Below are positions 14,521 through 57,280 of a DNA stretch of 64,000 nucleotides, piece by piece. Source of the DNA: an uncultured delta proteobacterium (GTDB lineage: Bacteria; Desulfobacterota; Binatia; Binatales; Binataceae); the NCBI GenBank assembly GCA_963808235.1, contig CAWEEQ010000002.1, positions 32,001 to 96,000 of the forward strand. The letters run 5' to 3'. Positions within the stretch are counted from its first letter, which is position 1; each line of letters starts with the position of its first letter. Both the position numbers and the translations under genes were made by a program. The notes beneath the pieces were generated by a model. The model saw nothing but the letters and a program-made list of their open reading frames with translations. It was not told where the DNA came from and searched no databases.

Positions 14521-14672
14521 ATCTTTTCCAATGCTCATCACACTACGCCCTGCTCACCTCCATCGACGTGCTTGCCTGCGCGCCCTACGCCTCTCGCTTC
14601 GGATGCGACAGTCCGCGGCGCGCTCGCGAGCCCTCGCGGCTGCGAACTAATTCCGAGTCTCAGGAGATCCAG

Positions 14673-15830
14673 ATGCGACGAGATATTTTCAGCGAAGAAC
14701 ACGAGATGTTCCGTGCCCAGGTGCGCCGCTTTGTCGATACCGAAATCGAACCGAAGGTGCCCGAATGGAACCGCGCCGGGATGAGCGATCGCGCGAGCTG
14801 GCGTAAAATGGGCGAAGCCGGCTTTCTCGGCGCAAACGCGCCCGCGGAATACGGCGGCGCCGGCGTCGATTTCATCTACGACGCGATCGTGATGGAAGAA
14901 CTGGCGCGGGTGCGCGCGCACGGACTCATGATGTCGCTGCATTCAGACATCTGCATGCCGTACATCACGACCTTCGGCAATTCAGAACAGAAGCGCCGTT
15001 ACATCCCCGGCGCGATCGCGGGCGAAGTAATCCTCGCGATCGCGATGACCGAGCCGGGCACCGGCTCCGATCTTGCTGCCGTTCAAACCACCGCGCGCCG
15101 CGACGGCGATCACTATGTGCTGAACGGTTCGAAGACTTTCATCTCTAACGGACAAATTGCCGACCTGGTAATCGTAGTCTGCAAGACCGATCCCAAAGCG
15201 AATCCGCCGCACAAAGGCGTCAGCTTGATCCTGGTGGATGCGACCAGCCCCGGGTTCGTGCGCGGGCGCAAGCTCGACAAGCTCGGGCTTCGCGGCCAGG
15301 ACACCAGCGAGCTGTTCTTCGAGGATTGTCGCGTCCCGGCCGGCAACCTGCTCGGAAAAGAAGGGTCGGGATTCAAAATGCTGATGGAGAAGCTGCAGCA
15401 GGAGCGGCTTTGCGTCGGAGTCGCCTCGATGGCGAGTTGCCGGCGCACGCTCGAGGACACGGTCGCCTACTGCAAAAATCGGCGCGCATTCGGGCAGCCG
15501 ATCGCCGAGTTCCAGAATACGCAATTCAAGCTCGCCGAGATGATGACCGAAGTCGAAGTGGGGCAGGCATTCGTCGATCGGCTGCTGACGGCGCATGTCC
15601 GCGGCGACGAGATCGTGGCCGAGGTGAGCATGGCAAAATGGTGGACGACCGACCTGCAGAAAAAGATTTCGAGCCAATGCCTGCAACTACACGGCGGCTA
15701 CGGCTTCATGATGGAGTACCCCGTATCGACCGACTACGCCGACGCCGCAGTCCAATCGATCTACGCCGGCACCAACGAAATCATGAAGGTGATAATCGCG
15801 CGCCGAATGGGTTTGGATACGCGCAAATAG
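14673..15830 (+). CDS. Acyl-CoA dehydrogenase
   Basis: AMTEPGTGSDL, LNGSKTFISNG, QLHGGYG, IYAGTNEIM. Confidence 0.95.
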   Translation: MRRDIFSEEHEMFRAQVRRFVDTEIEPKVPEWNRAGMSDRASWRKMGEAGFLGANAPAEYGGAGVDFIYDAIVMEELARVRAHGLMMSLHSDICMPYITTFGNSEQKRRYIPGAIAGEVILAIAMTEPGTGSDLAAVQTTARRDGDHYVLNGSKTFISNGQIADLVIVVCKTDPKANPPHKGVSLILVDATSPGFVRGRKLDKLGLRGQDTSELFFEDCRVPAGNLLGKEGSGFKMLMEKLQQERLCVGVASMASCRRTLEDTVAYCKNRRAFGQPIAEFQNTQFKLAEMMTEVEVGQAFVDRLLTAHVRGDEIVAEVSMAKWWTTDLQKKISSQCLQLHGGYGFMMEYPVSTDYADAAVQSIYAGTNEIMKVIIARRMGLDTRK

Positions 15831-15868
15831 TGCAGACCGCCTTAGCGATGGTGTACATGGTATGCTTA

Positions 15869-15881
15869 GCGTAGTATACGC
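15869..15881. promoter_or_regulatory. Candidate HigA operator
   Basis: Palindrome GCGTA-GTA-TACGC just upstream of higB. Confidence 0.45.
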
Positions 15882-15887
15882 ACCGTA

Positions 15888-16166
15888 GTGATCAAGTCCT
15901 TTCGTTCAAAGGACACGAGGGCTTTGTTCGACGGCCGTCGCGTGTTGCGTTTTCAGAGCTTTGAGCGTGTCGCGGTGCGAAAGCTTGAGATGATTAACGG
16001 CGCAACCGCCCTTGCGGACTTGCAGGCAGTTCCCGGGAATCGATTGGAGCTGCTCCGAGGTAACAGAAAGGGCCAATACAGCATCCGGATCAATCAGCAA
16101 TGGCGAATCTGTTTCGTTTGGGCCGAAGGAAACGCACATGAAGTCGAGATTGTCGACTATCACTAG
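15888..16166 (+). CDS. higB: HigB (RelE/ParE family) toxin
   Basis: PGNRLELLRGNRKGQYSIRINQQWRICF...EIVDYH. Confidence 0.93.
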   Translation: MIKSFRSKDTRALFDGRRVLRFQSFERVAVRKLEMINGATALADLQAVPGNRLELLRGNRKGQYSIRINQQWRICFVWAEGNAHEVEIVDYH

Positions 16167-40501: not shown

Positions 40502-40593
40502 GGCGAATCTATGGCGATGATCCGTGGACCTGGCAAAATCGCGCCCGGATAGGTTTTGCCAGATTCTGCGGATTCGCGCCGCCAGAAGCGTTC
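40502..40593. repeat. Dispersed repeat B, copy 1
   Basis: ggcgaat...ggcgatgatccg.ggacct.gcaaaatcgcgcc.ggataggttttgcc.gattctg; matches 45762-45853. Confidence 0.9.
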
Positions 40594-41940: not shown

Positions 41941-42037
41941 AGTACGCCCCCACAGGTTCATGAATTCGTTCGAACCATCCAGTCTGGACGTTGGCCGCCT
42001 TCGATAGTGATGATGCGACCCCCCAGAGCTAATCCAA

Positions 42038-42119
42038 GGCGATGCTCCGCGGACCTGGGTAAATCGCGCCGAGAGAGGAATCGATCGATTCGTTGACATC
42101 TCCAAAAATCTGGAGACTG
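42038..42119. repeat. Dispersed repeat B, degenerate internally deleted copy
   Basis: ggcgatgctccgcggacctgggtaaatcgcgcc...tcgatcgattc...gagactg matches both ends of 45773-45938. Confidence 0.65.
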
Positions 42120-42948: not shown

Positions 42949-44313
42949 CTAGAACACCGGCACTGGAATGAAAGGAATTTCTGGAATTTCGATGGGTGGC
43001 GGAATCGCTGGGTCCATCGGGACAACTGGCACGGTCATGTTGTCGTTCGGTTCCGATACCGGCGGCTTCCACTCCGGCGCATCCCCATTTGGGTCTGTTG
43101 GAGATTGGCCCGGTCCGCAACTGTTCTGATAGGGCTTGCCTGAATTAGGGGGCGACGGCTTGTTTTTGCCCCCGCCGGGGGGTTGTTGATCCCAGTGACG
43201 CCAATGATCGTCGTCCTCCGGGTGCGCGATCCATTTCGTCCCGCCCGGATCGGTCAAATACCACCGGCCGTTAGGAAATTGCTCGGTTGGCCCCCAAGTA
43301 TTAGGATCATATCCGGGTGGTGGCGGAGGATACTGACCGATCCACCAGCCGATTGGATCGTTCCATACCGTCGGTGCATTTCGCGCGTACGCGTATACGT
43401 TGGCATCGCCGCCACGGAACCCAATAGGATCCTGAGATACGAATCGCTGGAAGGTCGGGCTGTAGTAGCGTGCACGGTAGAAGTACAGCCCCGTCCCGTC
43501 ATTCTCGCGGCCAGTAAACTCATAGCTGCTGCCATTGGCCGCGCCACCGACGGTCGTCGCCCCGAATGGCTGATACGTATAACTCGTCGCGACGGTCTGC
43601 GCCGATCCCACCAGTCCGATCGTCGAGCCGAGCGCGTCGGTAAGCAGCGTCGACACGTTGTTGCTGGAGTCACTACGTACGAAATACTCGTCGGTTCTGA
43701 GGCCGGTCAAAAGATTGGCGGTCGGTGTCCCTCCTTGGAGTTCTTGTACAGGATTGAGGCCGTCGTAGAGAAACTGCATGTCCGTCCCTGCGATCGTTTT
43801 ACTCGCGCGTCGGCCGAATGCGTCATATGTAAAGCTGGCGGTCGCCGCACCGCTGATCGCCGTCAGATGGTTGCGTGCGTCCCAAGTATAGGTATTGATG
43901 CCATCCGAAGCGAGATTCCCGTTAGCGTCGTAGCTTAGTGTCGCGCCATTGAACGAGATCATCGCATTGTCCGCGTTGAAAGTGTTGCCGCTGACGGCGG
44001 AGGGCATACCTGTTGACGCCAAGCTCCCGGTCTTTGCCGTCATTCGGCCGTCAGTATCGTACGAGTAGCTCAGGTTGCCCAGGTTCGAGGGCGGGCTCGA
44101 ACAGCTCCCGCCCGTACCGTATGTGAGCGAAGTTACGCGCGAGTCACTGTCGTAGCCGTAGCTTGCGATCACGCCGTTAGGCAGCGTCAGACAGGTGCGT
44201 CGGTTGGCATTGTCGTAGTTCATTCCCACGCTTTGACTGCCCTGGCTGATGCCTGTCAGCCGGTTGCCGTTGTCAAAGGTATACGCTGCTTGGCTCTGCC
44301 CGACCACCTGCAT
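42949..44313 (-). CDS. Rhs core with C-terminal toxin (H-x-x-D...H...HWD, Ntox37-like); 3' part of a broken Rhs gene
   Basis: YD repeats; FTGRENDGTGLYFYRARYYSP...DPIG...NDPIGW; tip AHPEDDDHWRHWD. Confidence 0.88.
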   Translation of the reverse strand: MQVVGQSQAAYTFDNGNRLTGISQGSQSVGMNYDNANRRTCLTLPNGVIASYGYDSDSRVTSLTYGTGGSCSSPPSNLGNLSYSYDTDGRMTAKTGSLASTGMPSAVSGNTFNADNAMISFNGATLSYDANGNLASDGINTYTWDARNHLTAISGAATASFTYDAFGRRASKTIAGTDMQFLYDGLNPVQELQGGTPTANLLTGLRTDEYFVRSDSSNNVSTLLTDALGSTIGLVGSAQTVATSYTYQPFGATTVGGAANGSSYEFTGRENDGTGLYFYRARYYSPTFQRFVSQDPIGFRGGDANVYAYARNAPTVWNDPIGWWIGQYPPPPPGYDPNTWGPTEQFPNGRWYLTDPGGTKWIAHPEDDDHWRHWDQQPPGGGKNKPSPPNSGKPYQNSCGPGQSPTDPNGDAPEWKPPVSEPNDNMTVPVVPMDPAIPPPIEIPEIPFIPVPVF

Positions 44314-45761
44314 CGTCTCGCGCCGGCTCCGTCGCCGGGATCAATAAAGACCTGAAAGTTCTTCTGTTCGATGTTGCCGAGCGGATCGGTGATGGTGGTT
44401 TGAGTGACATTGCCGTTGCCGTCAGTGACGTAAGAGAACTGTAAAGTGCTGGTGCCGTCAGCGAGTGTCTGTTGCTTTACGCGTCCGGCGGTATCGTACT
44501 GGTTGGTGAAGACGGTGTTCCCGTTCGGGTCCGTCATTGTGAGCACTCGATTCGATGAGTCGTAGGTGTAGCTACTGACGGCGCCCTTGGCGTCAGTCAC
44601 GGTCGCCAAGCGTCCCGAAGAATCATAAGTATAGGAGACGGTGCGGCCAATATTATCTTGGAGCTGGGTAATCCGATTGCTCGAGTCATGCTGGACTGTG
44701 ATCCAGCGACCGTTTGGCGACTGTATTTGGCTGACGTTGCCGTTAGAATCGCGGCTGATCGTTGCCGTGTTGTTGTTGCGGTCAGTGATGCTCACCAGTG
44801 CAGCCTTGGCGGGATTCGTCGTGCCGGTGGAGTTGGGGAAGAGATACTGCGTCTTGTCTCTGAGGGTCAGGGTCCAGCTACTACCGTTCCAGGCGAGCGT
44901 CGATCCGAAGAAGCGTCCCGGCGCCGTGGTATTCTCATACGCGGCGTTCGAATAACCGGTGCCTGACGATGTGCGCTGGTAATAAACGCGTCCTCCGTCG
45001 GGCAGTATCAGATATTGATAAGAGTACGTGCTGGTGTTTCCGACGAGGAACATCTCGTAGCTGTCAGTGCCCCCGATACCAAACGGCCGCGACATATGAT
45101 CTGAAGTCCGGTACGTTCGCGCGAACTGTATCGGGATCACATCCGATAGCATGAGATCAGTGTGGCTCTCGATAAAGAGCCCCGTGCTGCAGTCCACCGG
45201 ATCGCCTGCGTCGCTGCAGCCCGGCGCGCCAGGCGGCGGAGGATTCGGGCTCGGCGCGATGGAGGGGCTCCCCACCATCGCACCCGTAAATCCATAGATC
45301 TGGACACCGGCGTCGGGAACGACCTGGCTGCCGTCCGAAGTGACCTCGCCCTGGCCGTAGATGTACCAACCCGAGGCGCTTGGGGCTGCGTTATAGTTCC
45401 AGAAATCAAAGGAGGTCCCCGCCGGCGCATGGTAGGTATTCGGGTAGTAAAGCTGCGCGCCTATCCATTGACCGTTCGCATTCTCGAAGTAAGAACCACC
45501 GGGCTGAATCGTGAAATAGATCGGTACCTGCACGCCAATTGGCAGAGGAAACGGCGGCTGGTCGATCGGAATCGGCGTGATCGTGACGGTATGAACCACG
45601 TGGCCATACCAGTCTTTGACAATGGTGCCCGGCTGGAGATGCAGTTCCAGACCTGGTAGCAGCGGGTTGCTGACAACTACTTCGGAACTGGTCGGTGAGG
45701 GGATATTCACGGCGTGCGCGGCGGCGGCACGCGTTCGATGGATTCCGGGTACAATCAGCAG
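44314..45761 (-). pseudogene. Rhs N-terminal fragment (DUF6531-like plus YD repeats), 5'-truncated by repeat B and out of frame with the core
   Basis: GDPVDCSTG, FARTY, YTYDSSGRL, YDTAGRV. Confidence 0.85.
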
Positions 45762-45939
45762 GGCGAATTTACGGCGATGATCCGCGGACCTAGCAAAATC
45801 GCGCCTGGATAGGTTTTGCCCGATTCTGGCGATTTGCTCTGCTGAGGGCGTTCTCCGGGTCCGCGCGTAATCGTAAATCGCGCGCACACGCGCCTATTTC
45901 GATCAATTCTCCGAGATGTCCGAGAATCGAGAGACTGGA
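45762..45939. repeat. Dispersed repeat B, longest copy, abutting the tRNA-Ala 3' end
   Basis: Matches 40502-40593 and 42038-42119. Confidence 0.9.
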
Positions 45940-46015
45940 TGGTGGAGCAGAACGGATTTGAACCCTCGACCCCTACGTTGCGAACGTAGTGCTCTCCCAG
46001 CGGAGCTACTGCCGC
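45940..46015 (-). tRNA. tRNA-Ala(CGC), degenerate (probable pseudo-tRNA)
   Basis: 76-nt cloverleaf, CTACG-TTCGCAA-CGTAG, G3:U70, 3' ACCA; C2:C71 mismatch, A14 to C, G:G in T-stem. Confidence 0.8.
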
Positions 46016-46133: not shown

Positions 46134-46633
46134 CCCCGCGCGTAGCGGTCTGAATCCGAATCCCAGTAGCCAGCCTACTTCTCCGGATCGCCACGAGACT
46201 TCAGGGCTGAACTGTTCAGCCTTACCCAAATCAAACCCCGATGGCATCATTCCCACGATGGATTGATCCGATGAATCGACATTGTCAGAACCAGATGCGG
46301 ACCTCAGAGGAACCCGGGGAAGTCATGCTCTCGCACGCGCGAGAGTCGCGTCCCGGCAACATTTGTCGCGTCGACGCTCCCCCGCCCTTCCGCAAGGAAC
46401 ACGCTGGCGCAGAATGGTTTGCGACTCCACCAACCGCCGGCGGCGCAAAGATGGCAACCAACGGCAAGGTCGCGAAATCCGCCCCAACACCACTTTTGGC
46501 CGCTTCGGAACAGCTGAGTCCTTGTTATTCGGAGAACAATCCGGGGACCCGCGCTTGTTCACATATACTCGCGAATCTGGGCATTATCAGTCTGCGTCTT
46601 GCGATCGGGGGATTGCCGGCGTCTGGAGACACG

Positions 46634-47749
46634 ATGACCCGAGCTACGACTCGCAAATATCTCATAGCGCTCGCGCGATGGTTCGACACTTCGGCCGGCG
46701 GAACTGGCGCCGCCGACGGTCCACAAAAGACCGATTGGTTCCGATGCATCCCGTTCGTCGCGGTCCATCTGATGTGCCTCGGAATAATCTGGGTCGGATG
46801 GAGTCCGATCGCAGTGGGGATCGCGATTGCGCTTTATTTCGTCCGCATGTTCGCGATCACCGGATTTTACCACCGTTACTTTTCTCATCGCTCGTTCAAG
46901 ACCACGCGCGTCGCGCAATTCGCTTTTGCCGTGATGGGCGCGACCTGCGTGCAGCGCGGAGCGCTCTGGTGGGCGTCGCATCATCGCCTGCATCATCAGC
47001 GCTCCGATGAGCCCGCAGACGTCCATTCGCCGCGCCAGCACGGTTTCATCTGGAGCCACATCGGCTGGATCACTTCGGAGTCGAATTTCCGATCCGAACT
47101 TCGCGTGGTGCGCGACCTGGTGAAATTTCCCGAACTGATGTTCCTCGATCGATTCGACATACTGGTGCCAACGGTGCTCGGCTTCGCACTGTTCGGACTC
47201 GGCGCGTTCTTTGAGCGCGAGGCGCCGGGCCTGCACACCACCGGCGCCCAGATGCTCATCTGGGGATTCTTTGTCTCAACCGTGGTGCTCGCGCACGGCA
47301 CCTTTACGATCAACTCGCTCGCGCACGTCATCGGGCGGCGCCGCTATGAGACCGGCGACGACAGCCGCAACAGCTTCACGCTCGCGATGGTCACGCTCGG
47401 CGAAGGATGGCACAACAATCACCACCATTATCCAGCCAGCGCGCGCAACGGATTTTTCTGGTGGGAGATCGACATCACCTACTACGGTCTCAAGATGCTC
47501 GAAGCGGTCGGAATCATCTGGGATCTCCGTAAGGTCCCGGAGCAGTTGCTCGACGAAAACCTTGTAGACGCGCAGCCTCGCGTGATTCGAGCCGAGATGC
47601 CGGCGGGAATCGAATTGATCGCAAACGTGCGTCGCAGCGCCGACGACGATCGGCAAATCTTTCCAGCGCTACAAGACGCCGCGCTCAAGGCGGCGGCACG
47701 CCCAAACCTTACCGCTGCCGAGCCTGCTGATTCCGACCGGGTCGCTTGA
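46634..47749 (+). CDS. Acyl-CoA (delta-9 type) desaturase
   Basis: His boxes YHRYFSH, HHRLHH, GEGWHNNHH; GGAG RBS before ATG 46634. Confidence 0.93.
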   Translation: MTRATTRKYLIALARWFDTSAGGTGAADGPQKTDWFRCIPFVAVHLMCLGIIWVGWSPIAVGIAIALYFVRMFAITGFYHRYFSHRSFKTTRVAQFAFAVMGATCVQRGALWWASHHRLHHQRSDEPADVHSPRQHGFIWSHIGWITSESNFRSELRVVRDLVKFPELMFLDRFDILVPTVLGFALFGLGAFFEREAPGLHTTGAQMLIWGFFVSTVVLAHGTFTINSLAHVIGRRRYETGDDSRNSFTLAMVTLGEGWHNNHHHYPASARNGFFWWEIDITYYGLKMLEAVGIIWDLRKVPEQLLDENLVDAQPRVIRAEMPAGIELIANVRRSADDDRQIFPALQDAALKAAARPNLTAAEPADSDRVA

Positions 47750-49105: not shown

Positions 49106-51795
<2,690 letters not shown>

Positions 51796-51970: not shown

Positions 51971-52052
51971 CAGGTGATGTCGGTGACGCCGAAAATAGAA
52001 CTGACGACGGCCTATGTGGTATTGAGCTGGATGCTTGCGCTCTCACCCGCAG

Positions 52053-52100
52053 GCTAGCGAACCGAAAAATATAGAGAGCAGAAAAAGCGAACGCCGAATC
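52053..52100. repeat. Imperfect ~48-bp direct repeat, copy 1 (copy 2 at 57416-57461)
   Basis: gctagcga...aaaa...gagagcagaaaa(a)gcgaacgccgaatc. Confidence 0.85.
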
Positions 52101-53296
52101 TGGGACTCGCGTAATCAGCTTTCGAGCGTGTCAGGATCGGTCGCATTGACGGTGACCTACGACGCGCTAGGCCGGCGGATGACGTCGGCTAACGGGGCAG
52201 CCAACTTAACCTTTATTCACGACGGGGCGTCCGTGATCGGGTCATCGGACAGCGTATCGGGAAACACGTGGAGTTTCATGCCTGGGGGCCTGGCGGGATC
52301 GTTGACCTCCGGCGGAGCAAAAACCACCTGGGTGCCGCTGCTGGATACGGACGGATCGACGATCGCGCTGGTAAACTCCGCCCAGAACTCGCAGCTGGCG
52401 ACTACTTTCACCTATGATCCGTCGGGAGTACCGACCGTGGGCGGCCTCGCGAATTCGTTCCCGTTCCTCTACCAGGGCCTCGAGCATGAGGTCACAGACC
52501 CGGGCCAGCTTGACTTCGAGCCGTCGGGCAACGTGTACAATCCGCAGATCCAGCGCGAGTTGTCGCAGGTCGGCGAACAGGGAATAGGTGGCCCGCCGTC
52601 CGGGGGCGGCGCGGGAGTCGGCGGCGGAGGTGGTCCTGGCAACGGGGGCTTCGGCAACTTTGGGCCGGGACCCGGTCGAGGTCAGACGGGCAACAGCCTC
52701 GGGCAGACCTTCAGCGAACTCGGTACAGTCGCCAGTCCAGCCACTCTGCTTCTGCCGGATGGCTTAGGCTTTCTGACGATCGGCGGGGGTGACAATCCGA
52801 TCAGCATACCCATTTTTGCGATCAGCGATCTGTTCAACCTGTTCGGCTATTCAGCGGCGAACATTCAAAACCATACCAGTTGGATCACGGGCGGAATTCA
52901 AACTGGGACATTTTGGGCGTACGTCTCATCGCCGGCCAGAAATCCGCCGCGACCTTTATCGCGAGGAGCGACGACGCGCCACAGTCCGGCGTCGTCCTCG
53001 CCAGATACATCATGGTGCCATTCGGTCGATTGCCTCAGGATGTGAATCAGCCTCCGGGAAATGGATTTTCTGAAAAAAAAGTCCAGAACTACGTCAATCC
53101 CGACACCGGACAAAGCTTGCATCCAGATCCCACTCATGGATATCCAAAGGGTCCTCATTACGATCTGCACAGTGGCAGGTTGGAACCTAAAGGTAAGATT
53201 AGCTTGAGGCAGTTTTTTGACACGCTACAGTATTGGTCACAGGATCTCCAGCAGTGGATAGAATTAGAAGGTCCAACAGTTCTTCCGGTTGAATGA
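52101..53296 (+). pseudogene. Orphan Rhs tail with Ntox37-like nuclease tip; no start codon, frameshift near 52850
   Basis: WDSRNQL...YDALGRR, TYDPSG, FLYQGLE; tip NYVNPDTGQSLHPDPTHGYPKGPHYD. Confidence 0.8.
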
Positions 53297-53307
53297 GGTA
53301 GAGAGGA

Positions 53308-53925
53308 ATGAGCGCCATGCCTTTTGTTGACGTCATAGACAAACGACGCGCCTCGGAATATGTGAAGGACCAGCTTTCGCAGGGAACGACGCTGGCCAAG
53401 TTGGTCGCTCAATCAATCGATCTCTCGCGCGGACGTTACCGCGTCGCTATGCCGGAGAGCAGAGAACAGGGAAAAGAGTTTAATCTTAAGTGGGAGACGT
53501 TCCGACTCGCTGGAGATGAGGAAGACACTTTTGCTCGTCTGATCAAATCATTCATCTGCAACGAGGAGTGTGATGTCATTCTCCAGGACACGGGGACATC
53601 AGTGTCCTATCCATACTTTGCGAAGCTGCCGTATCGGAACTTGGCGATGACATATGCGGAGGAGGTCTATTGGAATGTGTCGGATGCGCAGCTAGCTGAT
53701 CTTTCCGACGACGCTATGGGCGACGTCATTAATCACGCGAGCTTCTGGCCCTTCTCGGCTTTCTTCTTTGTCGATGGAATTTCCAAAGGGAAGGCTGAAC
53801 TCGAGGATACTGACTTGCAATTGATTGTGAAGCAGCTAGTTGGAGTGGCTGTGGGAGCGTTCGACGATCGCTCGTACCTAGTCTGGTGGCGAGACGACCT
53901 ACGACCGTTCCCGCTGGTTGCCTAG
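53308..53925 (+). CDS. Putative immunity protein
   Basis: Directly follows toxin tip; ends VGAFDDRSYLVW. Confidence 0.7.
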   Translation: MSAMPFVDVIDKRRASEYVKDQLSQGTTLAKLVAQSIDLSRGRYRVAMPESREQGKEFNLKWETFRLAGDEEDTFARLIKSFICNEECDVILQDTGTSVSYPYFAKLPYRNLAMTYAEEVYWNVSDAQLADLSDDAMGDVINHASFWPFSAFFFVDGISKGKAELEDTDLQLIVKQLVGVAVGAFDDRSYLVWWRDDLRPFPLVA

Positions 53926-54122
53926 ATCAGGTGCCGAGCCCCCGTGCCGAGGGCATTTGCGCGAAGTTTCGCATTCCGGTTCCGCTTTCCTGCCTGCCGA
54001 TGCCCCTGCGTCCCCGCCAGCCTGTGCAATAACCGCCGCGATCGTAGCAGGATGCTACGCCGCTAGCCGAAATATTCAACCTAAAGGGCCTCCTGAGGAT
54101 TTCCAATAGTTTCCACAAAGCG

Positions 54123-54557
54123 ATGAGTGTAGAAATGAATGCGATTCAAAAGCAGGAACTCCCTATCGAGATAGTTATCTCCGCAGCATTGCTTCTTAGC
54201 GCGGGCACGATCGGATACAGCGTTGCGGTGTTCGGTATACACGGACTCAGTAGAGTCATTCCGCCATCGAACTGGGGCTTTGTGTTTTTGACGGCCGCTT
54301 CGCTTCTTAGGTTGATATCCGATTCGGACTATCCAGAGACAATCAGAAAGTCCAAATCATTGAGAACGCATTTGCGGCTGTTGTATGTTTGGGCACTGCT
54401 CCTAGGGGTTCTGTTCATAAGTATATTGTTTTTCTCAACCGGTCCCGATCTTGTCGTCGTATGCGTGGCAAGCATCTTTGGACTGATCTCCATATCAATG
54501 GTTATTATTCATAGCCTAAAGCGAGCTGCGAATGTTCCGCGGAGCGCGACACCCTAA
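54123..54557 (+). CDS. Four-TM membrane protein, possible orphan immunity
   Basis: AT-rich hydrophobic ORF inside the Rhs array. Confidence 0.6.
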   Translation: MSVEMNAIQKQELPIEIVISAALLLSAGTIGYSVAVFGIHGLSRVIPPSNWGFVFLTAASLLRLISDSDYPETIRKSKSLRTHLRLLYVWALLLGVLFISILFFSTGPDLVVVCVASIFGLISISMVIIHSLKRAANVPRSATP

Positions 54558-54562
54558 CTGCG

Positions 54563-56101
54563 GTGCGGCGTGCGGCGCTATCCGCGAGCGCGGTTACAAC
54601 GGGTGTGGCGGCGAACCCAGTGGCGACACAGTACGGTTATGACGCGGCGTCAAATTTGACCTCGCAGACCTATCTATACAACAATACTTCACTCGGCAAC
54701 CTGACCTACGGCTATGACCCTGACGGCCGCATGGTCGACGAAGGCGGCAGCTTCGCTCGCGTCAATATTCCACCGCTCATTACGGCGAGTTACAACAACA
54801 GAGATCAGATCAACATCTTTAACAACGCAAACGCAGTGTCCGACCCCGCGAGCAATCTGACCCGCGACCCGGCGACGCTGGCGACCTATTCGTGGGACTC
54901 CCGCAATCAGCTTTCGAGCGTGTCAGGCTCGGTCGCGGTGACCGTGACCTACGACGCGCTTAGCCGCCGGCGTCAAGCGCTGTCTGGCCTGCTGACGACT
55001 ACCTACCTTCATGACGGTTCGGCAGTCGTGTTTTCCTCAATTGCCGCCTCGACCAATGACATGCTCATGCTTCCCGGATCGAGCGAAGTAGTAGCGTTCG
55101 CGAACTCGGTTCCCGGAACAACCACAAACTGGGTGCCGCTGCACGATCTGAGTGGCTCGACAATAGGCCACGTCGATTCGACCGGTAGCGTCGCGAACTC
55201 ATTTACCTACGATCCGAATGGAACCCCGACGGTCACCGGCGCGTCGATCCCCGACCCGTATGAGTTCGCGGGCATGGAGTTGGACCCGACTGGACTCTAT
55301 TACGCAGGTGAGTACTACAGTCCGCGGCTCGTACGATCCATCTCGGAAATCGGTCCGACTAGTGCCAGCGGCAGCGGCGGTGGATCGGGTGGTGGCGGAT
55401 CCGGCGGCGGAGGAGGATCTGGCGGTGGCAGCGGGTTTAACCCCAGCGACTTGTCAGAGCTTCCTAGTTTGTCTCCGATGGGTGGTCCAGGGGGTCCCCA
55501 TATCGGTGGTCTGACCCTAAGCCAAGCATCCCGAAACGCTGAAATCGGCCAGATTGGGGGTATTATAGGTGCTATCGTGGGAGCCTCAGTGGGGGCACCT
55601 CTTGCGGGTTACGTGGTGGGTGACCTGATAGTAACGGGATTCTTAGATTTTATCGACCTTTTTGGGGGCAGCGATCAACCCAAGCCTACCCGGAAGCAAT
55701 TACAAATGCCGGGCCCGGTGATAGCCGCAAAAATCGGAGTCAGCGTGGCAAATATGTCTCTGACCCAAAGCGTCCTGGCAGATCCTCCCAGCGACGGCAC
55801 GCCCTTACAGAGCGTTGGCTTCAATCTTCCGGCTCCTGGCTACAACTATTGCGGGCCCGGTAACTACGCTCCTCTTCCGCCCAATGGAGAGAGCGATCAA
55901 TGCTGCCAAGCTCACGATAATGCCTACGATCAGTACGGCCTTTCAGCGGGCTCTGTCTTTCTTCATCCCTTCGGGATCGGCGCGGGCGCGGGCCAGCTAA
56001 CCGCCGACGCGGGCCTGTGTGCCTGCCTGCACGCCCATGTTCGAACAGGCCCCTACGATAGTCTGGTCGGCGGCATAGCTGAGGGTATCTTCTGCCACTG
56101 A
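54563..56101 (+). CDS. Orphan Rhs tail with C-terminal phospholipase A2-like toxin (N-terminally truncated)
   Basis: YD repeats, FAGMELDPTGLYY; PGYNYCGPGN, DQCCQAHDNAY, ADAGLCACL. Confidence 0.85.
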   Translation: MRRAALSASAVTTGVAANPVATQYGYDAASNLTSQTYLYNNTSLGNLTYGYDPDGRMVDEGGSFARVNIPPLITASYNNRDQINIFNNANAVSDPASNLTRDPATLATYSWDSRNQLSSVSGSVAVTVTYDALSRRRQALSGLLTTTYLHDGSAVVFSSIAASTNDMLMLPGSSEVVAFANSVPGTTTNWVPLHDLSGSTIGHVDSTGSVANSFTYDPNGTPTVTGASIPDPYEFAGMELDPTGLYYAGEYYSPRLVRSISEIGPTSASGSGGGSGGGGSGGGGGSGGGSGFNPSDLSELPSLSPMGGPGGPHIGGLTLSQASRNAEIGQIGGIIGAIVGASVGAPLAGYVVGDLIVTGFLDFIDLFGGSDQPKPTRKQLQMPGPVIAAKIGVSVANMSLTQSVLADPPSDGTPLQSVGFNLPAPGYNYCGPGNYAPLPPNGESDQCCQAHDNAYDQYGLSAGSVFLHPFGIGAGAGQLTADAGLCACLHAHVRTGPYDSLVGGIAEGIFCH

Positions 56102-56113
56102 GGGTGATCTCTA

Positions 56114-57280
56114 ATGCAAGTTATCAGTCAATCTCGCGGAATAAACCTCTTCGGTATGCTGCTTCTGAGCCTGACTATATGTTGTACCCGGCTCGCGGCA
56201 GAATCCTTGCCCGAGTGGATGCAGCCAGGGGTGCGCAAAGGCGTCGGCAGCCTCGAAAAGCGGCTTTTCTTGAACGTCGGCAATATCGGGACGGTGACGG
56301 ATATTCAGCGCGGGAACCTTCGCTCTCCGGGAGTAATCGAATTGGGAGTCGCTGGCAACTACGGCGCCAGGTTTTTCGACCAGGCAGGGAAGACGCAGGC
56401 GACCGTCGATTTTGTGGTTCGAACCCCGATGGGAGCGAGGGTTTCCGCCAAAATTGTGAAGCAGTCACGCGCAAACGGACTGCTCTTCCTTCGTCAGTCA
56501 GGGCCAGCGAGGATCTATGATAGTGTGGTCGATTCTAGCGGCAAGGAAGTTTGGCAAACTCCGTTTCCCCCTCTGACCAGCACCTTTGGCGATCTAAAGG
56601 GAGAGGGGGCGCCAGAATTCGTCTTTGCTGGAGAGGATAGCGCAATCGAGGCGCGAGATGTCTCAGGCGCGGTCATCTGGCGAAATGGAAAAGTTGGCTG
56701 GGCCTATAAGGTTGATTTTGTTGAGCCCGAGGAGGGCCGGCAATCCGAACTACTCGTCGATGTCAGTGGAACCCTCGTTGGGCTCGGAACAACCGGCGAA
56801 ATCTTGTTTAAGCGGAAGCCCGCCATAGACCTTTTCTTCAGCGACTTTTCGACGCTCCGGTGGCCAACCGTTTGCCAGGGCCAATGTCTGCTCATTAGCG
56901 GGAACGACAAGATTTTTCTGCTCACTCTTGATGCGGAAAAGGTGGTGACACAGCTTGACGCCCGCTACCTCTATGGGGCTCGTGGTGTGGCCGTTCGTTT
57001 CCACGAGAAGCAGGCGCCGCTATTGGCCGTGGCCGGACTTCTGGAATATCAGGGAAAGCGGGCGGTGGGTTTTGAAGCGGTTCACTCCGCGCTCTACGTC
57101 TTCGACGCTCACCGAAATCTCGTCTACAACGAAGTTCTTCCCGAGCGAGTTGAGGCACTCGGTGTGTTGCCAGCTGCGAACGGCAAAAGCGAGACTCTTT
57201 TGGTAGGCGGCGAGAATAAGGTTTGGCAATACTCCGCGCCTCTCGCGAACACGTCGCACTCACCTCAGGTGTCGAACTAG
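56114..57280 (+). CDS. Exported beta-propeller-like protein, putative PLA2 immunity
   Basis: Signal peptide; GKEVW, GDLKGEGAPE, GAVIW repeats; 12 nt after toxin stop. Confidence 0.7.
   Translation: MQVISQSRGINLFGMLLLSLTICCTRLAAESLPEWMQPGVRKGVGSLEKRLFLNVGNIGTVTDIQRGNLRSPGVIELGVAGNYGARFFDQAGKTQATVDFVVRTPMGARVSAKIVKQSRANGLLFLRQSGPARIYDSVVDSSGKEVWQTPFPPLTSTFGDLKGEGAPEFVFAGEDSAIEARDVSGAVIWRNGKVGWAYKVDFVEPEEGRQSELLVDVSGTLVGLGTTGEILFKRKPAIDLFFSDFSTLRWPTVCQGQCLLISGNDKIFLLTLDAEKVVTQLDARYLYGARGVAVRFHEKQAPLLAVAGLLEYQGKRAVGFEAVHSALYVFDAHRNLVYNEVLPERVEALGVLPAANGKSETLLVGGENKVWQYSAPLANTSHSPQVSN

Follow-up and report, generated by a model that had tools for sequence, protein, structure and literature searches.

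Two plus-strand open reading frames (ORFs) with RHS repeats, located downstream of katG (49441-51795) in a 64,000-nt stretch of contig CAWEEQ010000002.1 (GCA_963808235.1; hereafter the window), carry the C-terminal ends of a distinct lineage of Rhs polymorphic toxins. By alignment, the end of the YD shell in this lineage has lost the residues of the Rhs autoprotease, and a glycine-rich linker, a hydrophobic stretch and a conserved motif (together, the module) stand ahead of the toxin tip. Both tails are orphan fragments, and neither is a whole gene: no Rhs gene body lies ahead of either, and katG precedes them. The reading put forward here, to which a probability of about 0.55 is given, is that the tails are orphan toxin and immunity cassettes of this lineage, the cargo of which would remain uncut and tethered to its shell and would use hydrophobic helices for membrane entry. 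Coordinates are positions in the window unless prefixed with C4, C2 or an L number.

The standard of comparison within the window is a canonical Rhs end:

42949-44313, minus strand: comparator canonical Rhs end, RARYYSP...DPIG-x20-DPIGW, matching TIGR03696 at 1.9e-20.

According to passages in three papers, the Arg and the two DPxG Asp residues are needed for the Rhs aspartyl autoprotease (PMC13018210, PMC10684867, PMC9935623). The requirement for an Arg acting together with both aspartates is stated in parts of two of them (PMC13018210, PMC9935623), and an autoprotease of the form Arg + DPxG-x18-20-DPxG is described, again in passages of the text, as the conserved end of the shell (PMC13018210, PMC10684867). 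When the canonical end was aligned directly with the two tails, the DP of the first motif and everything through the second motif were missing from the tails, with a Gly/Ser run instead. No DPxG is present downstream of Y-x-x-P in tail 1 or tail 2, the Arg of RYYxP (the third catalytic residue) is replaced by Glu in tail 2 and by Asn in tail 1, and neither tail matches any NCBIfam model, TIGR03696 included, at E<=0.01. A sequence-only reading of this DNA had claimed that the Rhs at 42949 keeps the canonical RYY.P...DPIG...DPIG end and that both tails diverge from it at the core end and have neither DPxG; both claims are confirmed by these results. Alignment shows the YD-shell end of the lineage to have lost all three autoprotease residues, namely the Arg and both DPxG aspartates, and the inter-DPxG segment of ~24 residues to have been replaced by a flexible Gly/Ser linker.

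The two cassettes consist of the following features:

52035-53045, plus strand: tail 1, first frame; last ~130 YD-shell residues, protease-less core end, linker, hydrophobic stretch and DLFNLFG, then an out-of-frame run to the stop.
52101-52178, repeated at 54893-54970, plus strand: 78-nt shared shell segment, WDSRNQLSSVSG...YDALGRR, 88% identical, at the head of both cassettes.
52458-52574, plus strand: core end of tail 1, FPFLYQGLEHE...NVYNPQIQRELSQVG, without the Arg and without DPxG.
52575-52697, plus strand: Gly-rich linker of tail 1.
52698-52826, plus strand: hydrophobic stretch of tail 1, with a maximum KD19 of 1.26, weaker than in other members.
52827-52847, plus strand: DLFNLFG of tail 1, which terminates the hydrophobic segment.
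52848-52879, plus strand: frame-break zone of tail 1; the second frame is readable from 52868.
52868-53296 (ORF 52880-53296), plus strand: second frame of tail 1, KPYQL...ILGV (ILGV at 52910-52921), then the toxin tip.
53308-53925, plus strand: candidate immunity gene for the tip of tail 1, with no signal-like N-terminus by eye.
54123-54557, plus strand: ORF of 144 residues with several hydrophobic segments, between both cassettes.
54563-56101, plus strand: tail 2, intact frame; last ~240 YD-shell residues, protease-less core end, linker, hydrophobic stretch, motif and phospholipase A2 (PLA2)-like tip.
55259-55354, plus strand: core end of tail 2, YEFAGMELD...YYSPRLVRSISEIG (also given as YEFAGMELD...GEYYSPRLVRSISEIG), with Glu at the Arg position and without DPxG.
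55355-55510, plus strand: Gly/Ser linker of tail 2.
55511-55654, plus strand: hydrophobic, GxxxG-rich stretch of tail 2, with a maximum KD19 of 1.89.
55655-55744, plus strand: motif of tail 2, DLFGGSDQPKPTRKQLQMPGPVIAAKIGVS, degenerate and without the His of the family.
55745-56098, plus strand: toxin tip of tail 2, with a PLA2-like core at 55841-55936 (YNYCGPG...CCQAHDNAY).
56114-57280, plus strand: candidate immunity gene for the tip of tail 2, by position only; its N-terminus is signal-like by eye.

RHS_repeat (PF05593) matches tail 1 at 1e-05 and tail 2 at 3e-05. The parts of tail 1 that are separated by the frame break are held in a single frame by a full-length relative, P0110, whose in-frame C-terminus is 65% identical to the second frame of tail 1 over 139 residues. 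A database protein, P0006, is identical to tail 1 at 295 of 297 positions, the out-of-frame end included; contigs from four public DNA runs showed no differences from 52035-56101, with 52848-52879 lying outside their coverage.

The lineage extends far beyond the window. Profile A2, which was built from six sequences, runs from the core end to the motif and was searched against 1.84 billion representative proteins, matched 226 protein clusters at E<=1e-3, 136 at <=1e-10 and 12 at <=1e-30; the member-level counts given below refer to the best 150 of these 226 matches, aligned to the profile. Most matches are 200-400 residues long, hence orphans or contig fragments, and two are near full length (P0044, 1283 residues; P0110, 1258 residues); the names in the source records are "hypothetical protein," "YD repeat-containing protein" or "RHS repeat-associated protein." The core-end column (the Pro of Y-S-P) is held by 145 of the 150 members. 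Among these 145, the bipartite motif is present in none and a single DPxG within 90 residues in one (P0069), and the residue at the Arg position is Gln in 72, Asn in 47 and Arg in only 3. TIGR03696 matches 13 of the 150, weakly (best 1.4e-06). The canonical RHS core end, comprising the Arg and DPxG-x18-20-DPxG, is found neither in the tails nor in any of these 145 members.

The motif has the consensus D[LI]FGG(G)-x2-3-P-x-x-PRQLxHxRHPLYPxILG-x3-GLIP and is the best-conserved block of the family (F 105/113, G 110/114, G 107/114, H 100/102; further, R 83/104, P 84/102, Y 85/100 and the final G 89/98). The earlier description of a loosely shared motif was right as to the sharing, since linker, hydrophobic stretch and motif are all confirmed, and wrong as to the looseness; tail 2 and its parent, a full-length gene of 1294 residues introduced below, are divergent members that lack the near-invariant His. 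The hydrophobic stretch is ~40-60 residues long, rich in Gly, Ala and Pro, and variable in both length and sequence, with a maximum KD19 of 1.9-2.2 in five of six members; in tail 2 it includes the glycine-zipper-like run IGQIGGIIGAIVGASVGAPLAG. Rough pairwise estimates of the ratio of non-synonymous to synonymous substitution rates (dN/dS) of the module are 0.15-0.44 in six of seven pairs, the seventh being saturated.

PT-TG, PT-HINT and PT-VENN are described pre-toxin domains of polymorphic toxins, and the module might be a divergent form of one of these or a generic glycine-zipper pore toxin. Glycine-zipper families do match the hydrophobic part in a few of the 150 members (PF13488 in four, PF13441 in three, PF13436 in one and PF05433 in one), a total of at most nine matches that never fall on the motif; neither window tail matches these Pfam families at E<=0.01, and GxxxG runs are visible in tail 2. 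No pre-toxin Pfam family was matched in the 150 members at E<=0.001 or in the window tails at E<=0.01, and no Pfam or NCBIfam model covers the module or the motif in the tails or in the best 150 of the 226 matches. A PDB sequence search with a further profile, A5, gave no matches at E<=1, and in the ESM Atlas the module scored 0.80 at best, a chance-level value. Thus, an origin of the module in a domain already described is considered very improbable. The sequence-only reading had spoken of an undescribed polymorphic-toxin subfamily, and that part is upheld by the lack of a covering model and by full-text searching of the literature, outside supplements and subscription journals, which returned no description of the module; that the toxin is tethered or otherwise processed is something we infer, as that reading did.

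Downstream of the motif the sequences diverge. The module is carried to its end by 95 of the 150 members, and 85 tips of at least 50 residues fall into 35 single-linkage clusters (median 114 residues, range 51-145); 45 of these 85 tips contain at least four Cys. Pfam matches on the tips of the 150 members comprise PLA2 families (5-6), Ntox44 (2), eCIS_core (2), and DPBB_1, DUF4329, Ntox37 and Glucosaminidase (1 each). The motif therefore recurs ahead of at least 35 types of tip, whereas failure to recur would have refuted the sequence-only reading, and the tips of the two tails differ from each other, as had been noticed from the sequence. In tail 2, the tip matches PF08398 (phospholipase A2-like) at 1.3e-06, with 29 bits against a cut-off of 23.9, and displays the PLA2 calcium loop (YCGPG for YxGxG) and the His-Asp dyad (CCQAHD). 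In tail 1, the tip gives a weak match to Ntox37 (E 0.0089, 17 bits against a Pfam cut-off of 27.8), a family that matches 1 of the 150 relatives, at 2.2e-04. None of the three small ORFs that accompany the tails (53308-53925, 54123-54557 and 56114-57280) matches a Pfam or NCBIfam family. The first of these is 72% identical (146/204) to the gene immediately 3′ of the full-length relative P0110 (L045:6642-7334), so that both the tip of tail 1 and its downstream gene are conserved as neighbors there, which is the pattern expected of a toxin-immunity pair. The ORF between the cassettes may be a stray or leftover immunity gene of a lost, membrane-acting tip.

An intact gene of the same type, and further orphans, are present elsewhere in the same genome:

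C4:923864-928027, minus strand: full-length gene, 1294 residues when counted from the first ATG; it has DUF6531, RHS repeats and an N-terminus that looks signal-like by eye.
C4:2820353-2826588: array of five further orphans, with ends YSPQLVRSLSEQGQTSSNGSGGG..., then FFEDIFGGSSSETPRQLLSRRHPLYPKIIGVSE, then differing tips.
C4:2491520-2492413, minus strand: chimeric orphan, with a canonical DPxG pair, a short hydrophobic stretch and FLDPFGIFSGSGQPTIPRQ.

The 1294-residue gene ends in YYSPRLVRPLSEIGPTS, followed by poly-Gly/Ser, a hydrophobic stretch and LDLFGGSDQQTPTRKEKQMPGP, and the bipartite motif is absent; against Pfam it matches PF05593 (8e-15) and DUF6531 (2.5e-08) and no other families. 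It is the intact parent type with the same end as the tails. Residues 8-413 of tail 2 are 60% identical to a 1388-residue open frame at C4, and a nucleotide comparison of tail 2 gave 75% DNA identity over 752 nt. When the region of the full-length gene that includes the linker served as query in a word-indexed search, no match came back, probably because poly-Gly words swamped it. The window copies are silent spares, having no gene body and, in one case, a frameshift. The 78-nt shell segment at the head of both cassettes is likely to be a recombination anchor, and the cassettes could move into the full-length gene by recombination through this shared segment.

The predicted structure of the parent is that of an Rhs cocoon. 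AlphaFold2 (AF2) modeling of residues 32-1190 with 60 aligned homologs gave a pLDDT of 82 and a pTM of 0.81, with the shell confident up to the SEIG end, and the full-length parent is confidently predicted to form a closed beta-cocoon with an N-terminal plug. In Foldseek, the shell model matched Rhs structures at 3.7e-48 to 1e-45 (8qjc first, at 3.7e-48, with 8uxt, 7q97 and 7pq5 likewise at about 1e-47, then 8qja and Tse5, 8cp6), followed in lower rows by the bacterial teneurin-like protein (TLP) 9ifo (2.1e-40), teneurins (~1e-37 to 1e-34) and Tc toxins. Full-length members in general are ~1250-1350 residues long and comprise a signal-like N-terminus (by eye), a DUF6531 plug and a predicted Rhs cocoon.

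These findings bear on the simplest alternative, in which the tails are dead remnants with eroded protease motifs and their common features are due to chance or low complexity. Both tails are indeed orphan fragments, the frameshift of tail 1 is also present in the 99%-identical P0006, and the Gly-rich linker is of low complexity. However, several genomes have intact full-length genes with this end, the 226 clusters share near-invariant residues, dN/dS is <1 in every measurable segment, and the tip of tail 1 and its candidate immunity partner are conserved. Decay is hence scarcely credible, and the early argument against it, which relied on two copies of the same architecture, is reinforced by the intact genes, the clusters and the signature of selection. 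The profile search and the full-length genes show the lineage, at the level of sequence, to be a distinct and coherent family of Rhs polymorphic toxins.

The ends of full-length relatives also speak to the origin of the protease-less type. When the junctions of the 25 closest full-length homologs of the 1294-residue gene were read, 13 were non-canonical (P0152, P0154-P0162, P0164, P0166 and P0168) and 12 were canonical; with the 1294-residue gene, P0044 and P0110, these 13 relatives end without the bipartite motif, so that full-length homologs, which might have retained DPxG, frequently have not. Some ends are intermediate: the Arg is kept in P0152, P0158 and P0164, and the first DP in P0164, P0069 and P0141. 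Such forms would look like drift following loss of the second motif. A rapid tree of 33 rows was built from the ~740 N-terminal residues of the shell, five of its "canonical" labels coming only from a loose pattern prone to false positives; on it, non-canonical ends require a minimum of four state changes against a shuffled mean of 11.4, and none of 500 shuffles was as low. One clade of 12 is purely non-canonical, and the non-canonical P0152 has as its close sister the canonical P0153, which shares its FG.GEVEIPRE.QHKAH motif. The few state changes, together with this sister pair, indicate that protease-less ends are mainly a property of a single shell clade, with occasional swaps by recombination.

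With respect to distribution, profile A5 matched, at E<=1e-5, 14 of 201 sampled genomes of the class and 12 of 25 genomes of the family to which the window belongs; the matches that reach the linker and the motif come from six genomes, including that of the window, all in this family. An earlier profile, which was dominated by copies of the window genome, matched 2 of 401 sampled genomes of the phylum and understates the spread; that survey scored only nine candidates per genome. Seven loci lie in named genomes, labeled Candidatus Binatus sp., Candidatus Binataceae bacterium, "uncultured delta proteobacterium" and, once, Acidobacteriota bacterium, and most of them are orphan arrays. Two of the loci, L026 in a Candidatus Binatus metagenome-assembled genome (MAG) and L027 in an Acidobacteriota MAG, have the same cassette arrangement and are both 65% identical to the query (E 3e-54); in all probability, one bin carries a wrong label.

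A further observation concerns the genes that precede the full-length members:

L046:13758-14336 and 14628-16109 (C4), minus strand: upstream small ORF and Kelch protein.
L044:7221-7721: upstream small ORF.
L043:11316-11816: upstream small ORF.

A small ORF of 166-192 residues, with a hydrophobic N-terminus, two YD repeats and IPT/TIG, is located directly upstream of three of four full-length protease-less genes, and in the window's genome it is preceded by a 493-residue Kelch-repeat protein. Longer canonical relatives have Kelch and Ig-like domains fused at the N-terminus; these fusions make the upstream ORFs look like split-off N-terminal parts or partners.

How a toxin of this kind would be delivered can be outlined as follows. 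With the known autoprotease residues gone, the shell would be unable to release its cargo by the known mechanism. The toxin would then stay covalently attached to the cocoon via the linker as it leaves the ribosome and later the cell, with export by the signal peptide (read by eye) and not by PAAR, VgrG or a type VI secretion system (T6SS). The T6SS sheath gene (TssC) was not found in the genome, which is 93% complete and in which three secretins were found. While the protein is soluble, the hydrophobic helices would probably be stored inside the lumen of the cocoon, by analogy with mosquito SGS1, in which, according to a passage of the source, predicted membrane helices are buried in the Rhs shell (PMC9935623), and with Tse5 of P. 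aeruginosa, whose pore-forming cargo is described as passing from the shell into lipid (PMC10684867). At the target cell, the helices may serve as a device for membrane insertion or translocation of the tip, as has been proposed for the glycine zippers of Tde1; in this T6SS effector, the zipper is reported to be needed for membrane permeabilization and entry and is placed before the toxin domain. The motif would mark the junction at which tips are exchanged, and for the toxin to come free in the end, a trans-acting protease would have to cut the exposed linker or motif. A YD shell that works with an uncleaved C-terminus has a precedent in metazoan teneurins, according to a passage in PMC9935623.

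Several points weigh against such tethered delivery. Cleavage has been reported to be essential for the toxicity of a T6SS Rhs, and an uncleaved toxin is therefore unexpected; the absence of the known catalytic residues also leaves room for another cleavage route. In P0153 and in the orphan at C4:2491520-2492413, the motif comes after a canonical DPxG pair, which implies that the module is not dependent on protease loss. So hydrophobic a stretch in a Sec substrate could stop transfer in the inner membrane of the producer. Many tips, moreover, are Cys-rich (the 45 of 85 given above) or attack the envelope, and need no passage across the cytoplasmic membrane. Finally, the AF2 model of the parent has a pLDDT of 21-32 beyond the shell (linker, hydrophobic stretch and motif), with three low-confidence helices. 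In a separate model of the last 288 residues of tail 2, made with 130 sequences, only the PLA2-like tip reached a pLDDT of 77-92 and the region from linker to motif stayed at 41-63; Foldseek with this model gave no match at E<=0.001, the top rows being PLA2s at E of about 1. Owing to these low values, neither the location of the module inside the cocoon nor its helical nature is backed by a confident model.

The conservation of the motif raises the alternative that the module is a new processing site, in which the D[LI]FGG...PRQLxHxRHP block cleaves itself or is recognized by a dedicated protease and the toxin is freed elsewhere. In its favor, no other part of the cassette is as conserved as the motif (F 105/113, GG 110/114 and 107/114, H 100/102), which lies just ahead of the point at which the tips diverge and accompanies protease-less ends nearly always: only 1 (P0153) of ~110 full-length proteins with the bipartite pattern has it downstream. 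On the other hand, P0153 and one of the genome's orphans have it behind a DPxG pair of the working type, the His is lacking in tail 2 and in the 1294-residue gene, no conserved protease gene was seen beside the four full-length loci, and AF2 gave no confident structure for the module. A Ser-driven acyl shift at GG|S is also unlikely, as the residue after GG is variable (Ser in 54 rows and Gly in 53 at column 133), and this candidate was dropped. Two further ideas, a double-glycine leader that a C39 peptidase would cut and an unstructured translocation domain of the colicin type, were likewise not adopted. Taken together, a processing site appears to be an unlikely explanation of the module.

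A second alternative makes the hydrophobic stretch a stop-transfer anchor in the producer, with a Sec-exported shell and the basic PRQLxHxRH block in the cytoplasm, the whole forming a membrane-tethered periplasmic or surface device. A maximum KD19 of 1.9-2.2, which is above the usual range of membrane helices, Arg and His residues immediately after the stretch, the signal-like N-terminus (by eye) and the failure to find a T6SS sheath gene are all consistent with such an anchor. This topology would, however, place PLA2, lytic transglycosylase-like, glucosaminidase and Cys-rich tips on the cytoplasmic side of the producer, and tail 2 and L043 each have a candidate immunity gene with a signal-like N-terminus; in addition, the stretch abounds in Gly, Ala and Pro, and neither its length nor its sequence is constant. 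An anchor in the producer is accordingly regarded as rather less likely still than a processing site.

Beyond the tethered delivery favored here, it may be proposed more broadly, though as less likely than not, that an Rhs lineage gave up aspartyl self-cleavage, a feature regarded as universal among Rhs, Tc and teneurin-like toxins, and relies on a new pre-toxin module for both release and entry, whether by protease-independent tethered delivery, which would be the first from a bacterial cocoon, or by a novel processing element. If this were true, the lineage would represent a bacterial counterpart of the uncleaved teneurin state, or its motif would be a processing element of a new kind. A coherent lineage that is under selection without the three residues, and that has intact shells, diverse toxins and candidate immunity genes, constitutes a natural test of the need for cleavage in cocoon toxins, and a defined new module becomes available for the study of cargo exit from the shell and of membrane crossing. 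In practice, annotation pipelines equipped with a profile of the module could delimit toxin tips in proteins now called "hypothetical" or "YD repeat-containing."

Other features of the window concern the canonical Rhs and its surroundings. The comparator is itself broken, in overlapping frames at 44256-45887 and 42949-44313 (minus strand), and its start falls in a region internal to a 1567-residue open frame (C2:222547-227247), which marks it as a 5′-truncated, shortened copy. The two copies of a 92-nt direct repeat (40502-40593 and 45762-45853, 83% identical) bracket ~5.3 kb that contain this fragment, a third and weaker copy lies at 42024-42091, and one copy lies beside a tRNA-Ala gene (45940-46015, minus strand); the repeats resemble the termini of an island that inserted at this tRNA. 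ARAGORN also called a 90-nt tRNA-Ser (tga) at 47629-47718 (minus strand), which overlaps the 3′ end of a 502-residue ORF (46241-47749, plus strand); either the ORF is called too long or the tRNA-Ser call is spurious.

Compared with known systems, the lineage resembles canonical Rhs proteins and Tc-toxin C components (RhsA, Rhs1, Tse5, Tse15, TccC3) in its YD repeats, its DUF6531-type plug and its beta-cocoon fold, and also in its polymorphic C-terminal toxins with downstream candidate immunity genes and its orphan arrays, which occur in other genomes as well. It differs from them in lacking the Arg and the DPxG pair, in carrying a conserved linker, hydrophobic stretch and motif ahead of the toxin, and, compared with canonical Rhs, in being exported apparently by a signal peptide (by eye) and not by PAAR, VgrG or a T6SS. 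One survey left Rhs proteins without the motif out of its analysis. To our knowledge, every solved bacterial Rhs, Tc-C or teneurin-like cocoon keeps the autoprotease formed by the Arg and two Asp.

Like the family described here, the bacterial teneurin-like protein BiTLP is a YD-shell toxin outside the T6SS with short C-terminal domains (~15 kDa, compared with a median of 114 residues here) and immunity genes; unlike it, BiTLP keeps R2103, D2116 and D2140, is cleaved and holds its cargo in a closed shell, according to passages in PMC13018210, and the family here has none of the three residues. SGS1 and Tse5 share with the lineage a hydrophobic, membrane-type segment directly after the Rhs core (its helices being predicted here at low confidence), although both keep the aspartyl protease site and no sequence similarity to the module was found. 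The GxxxG-rich hydrophobic segment ahead of the toxin domain recalls Tde1, a resemblance of composition that does not establish homology; Tde1 lies outside the Rhs proteins and has its segment at the N-terminus. Metazoan teneurins, finally, share a (presumably) uncut C-terminus of the YD shell and a significant fold match (~1e-37 to 1e-34), and differ from the lineage, which is bacterial, has lost all three catalytic residues and not one, and bears polymorphic tips with candidate immunity genes; by Pfam, none of NHL, FN-plug, ABD and Tox-GHH was detected on the full-length parent. The lineage may also illustrate how C-termini that escape cleavage, like those of metazoan teneurins, originate.

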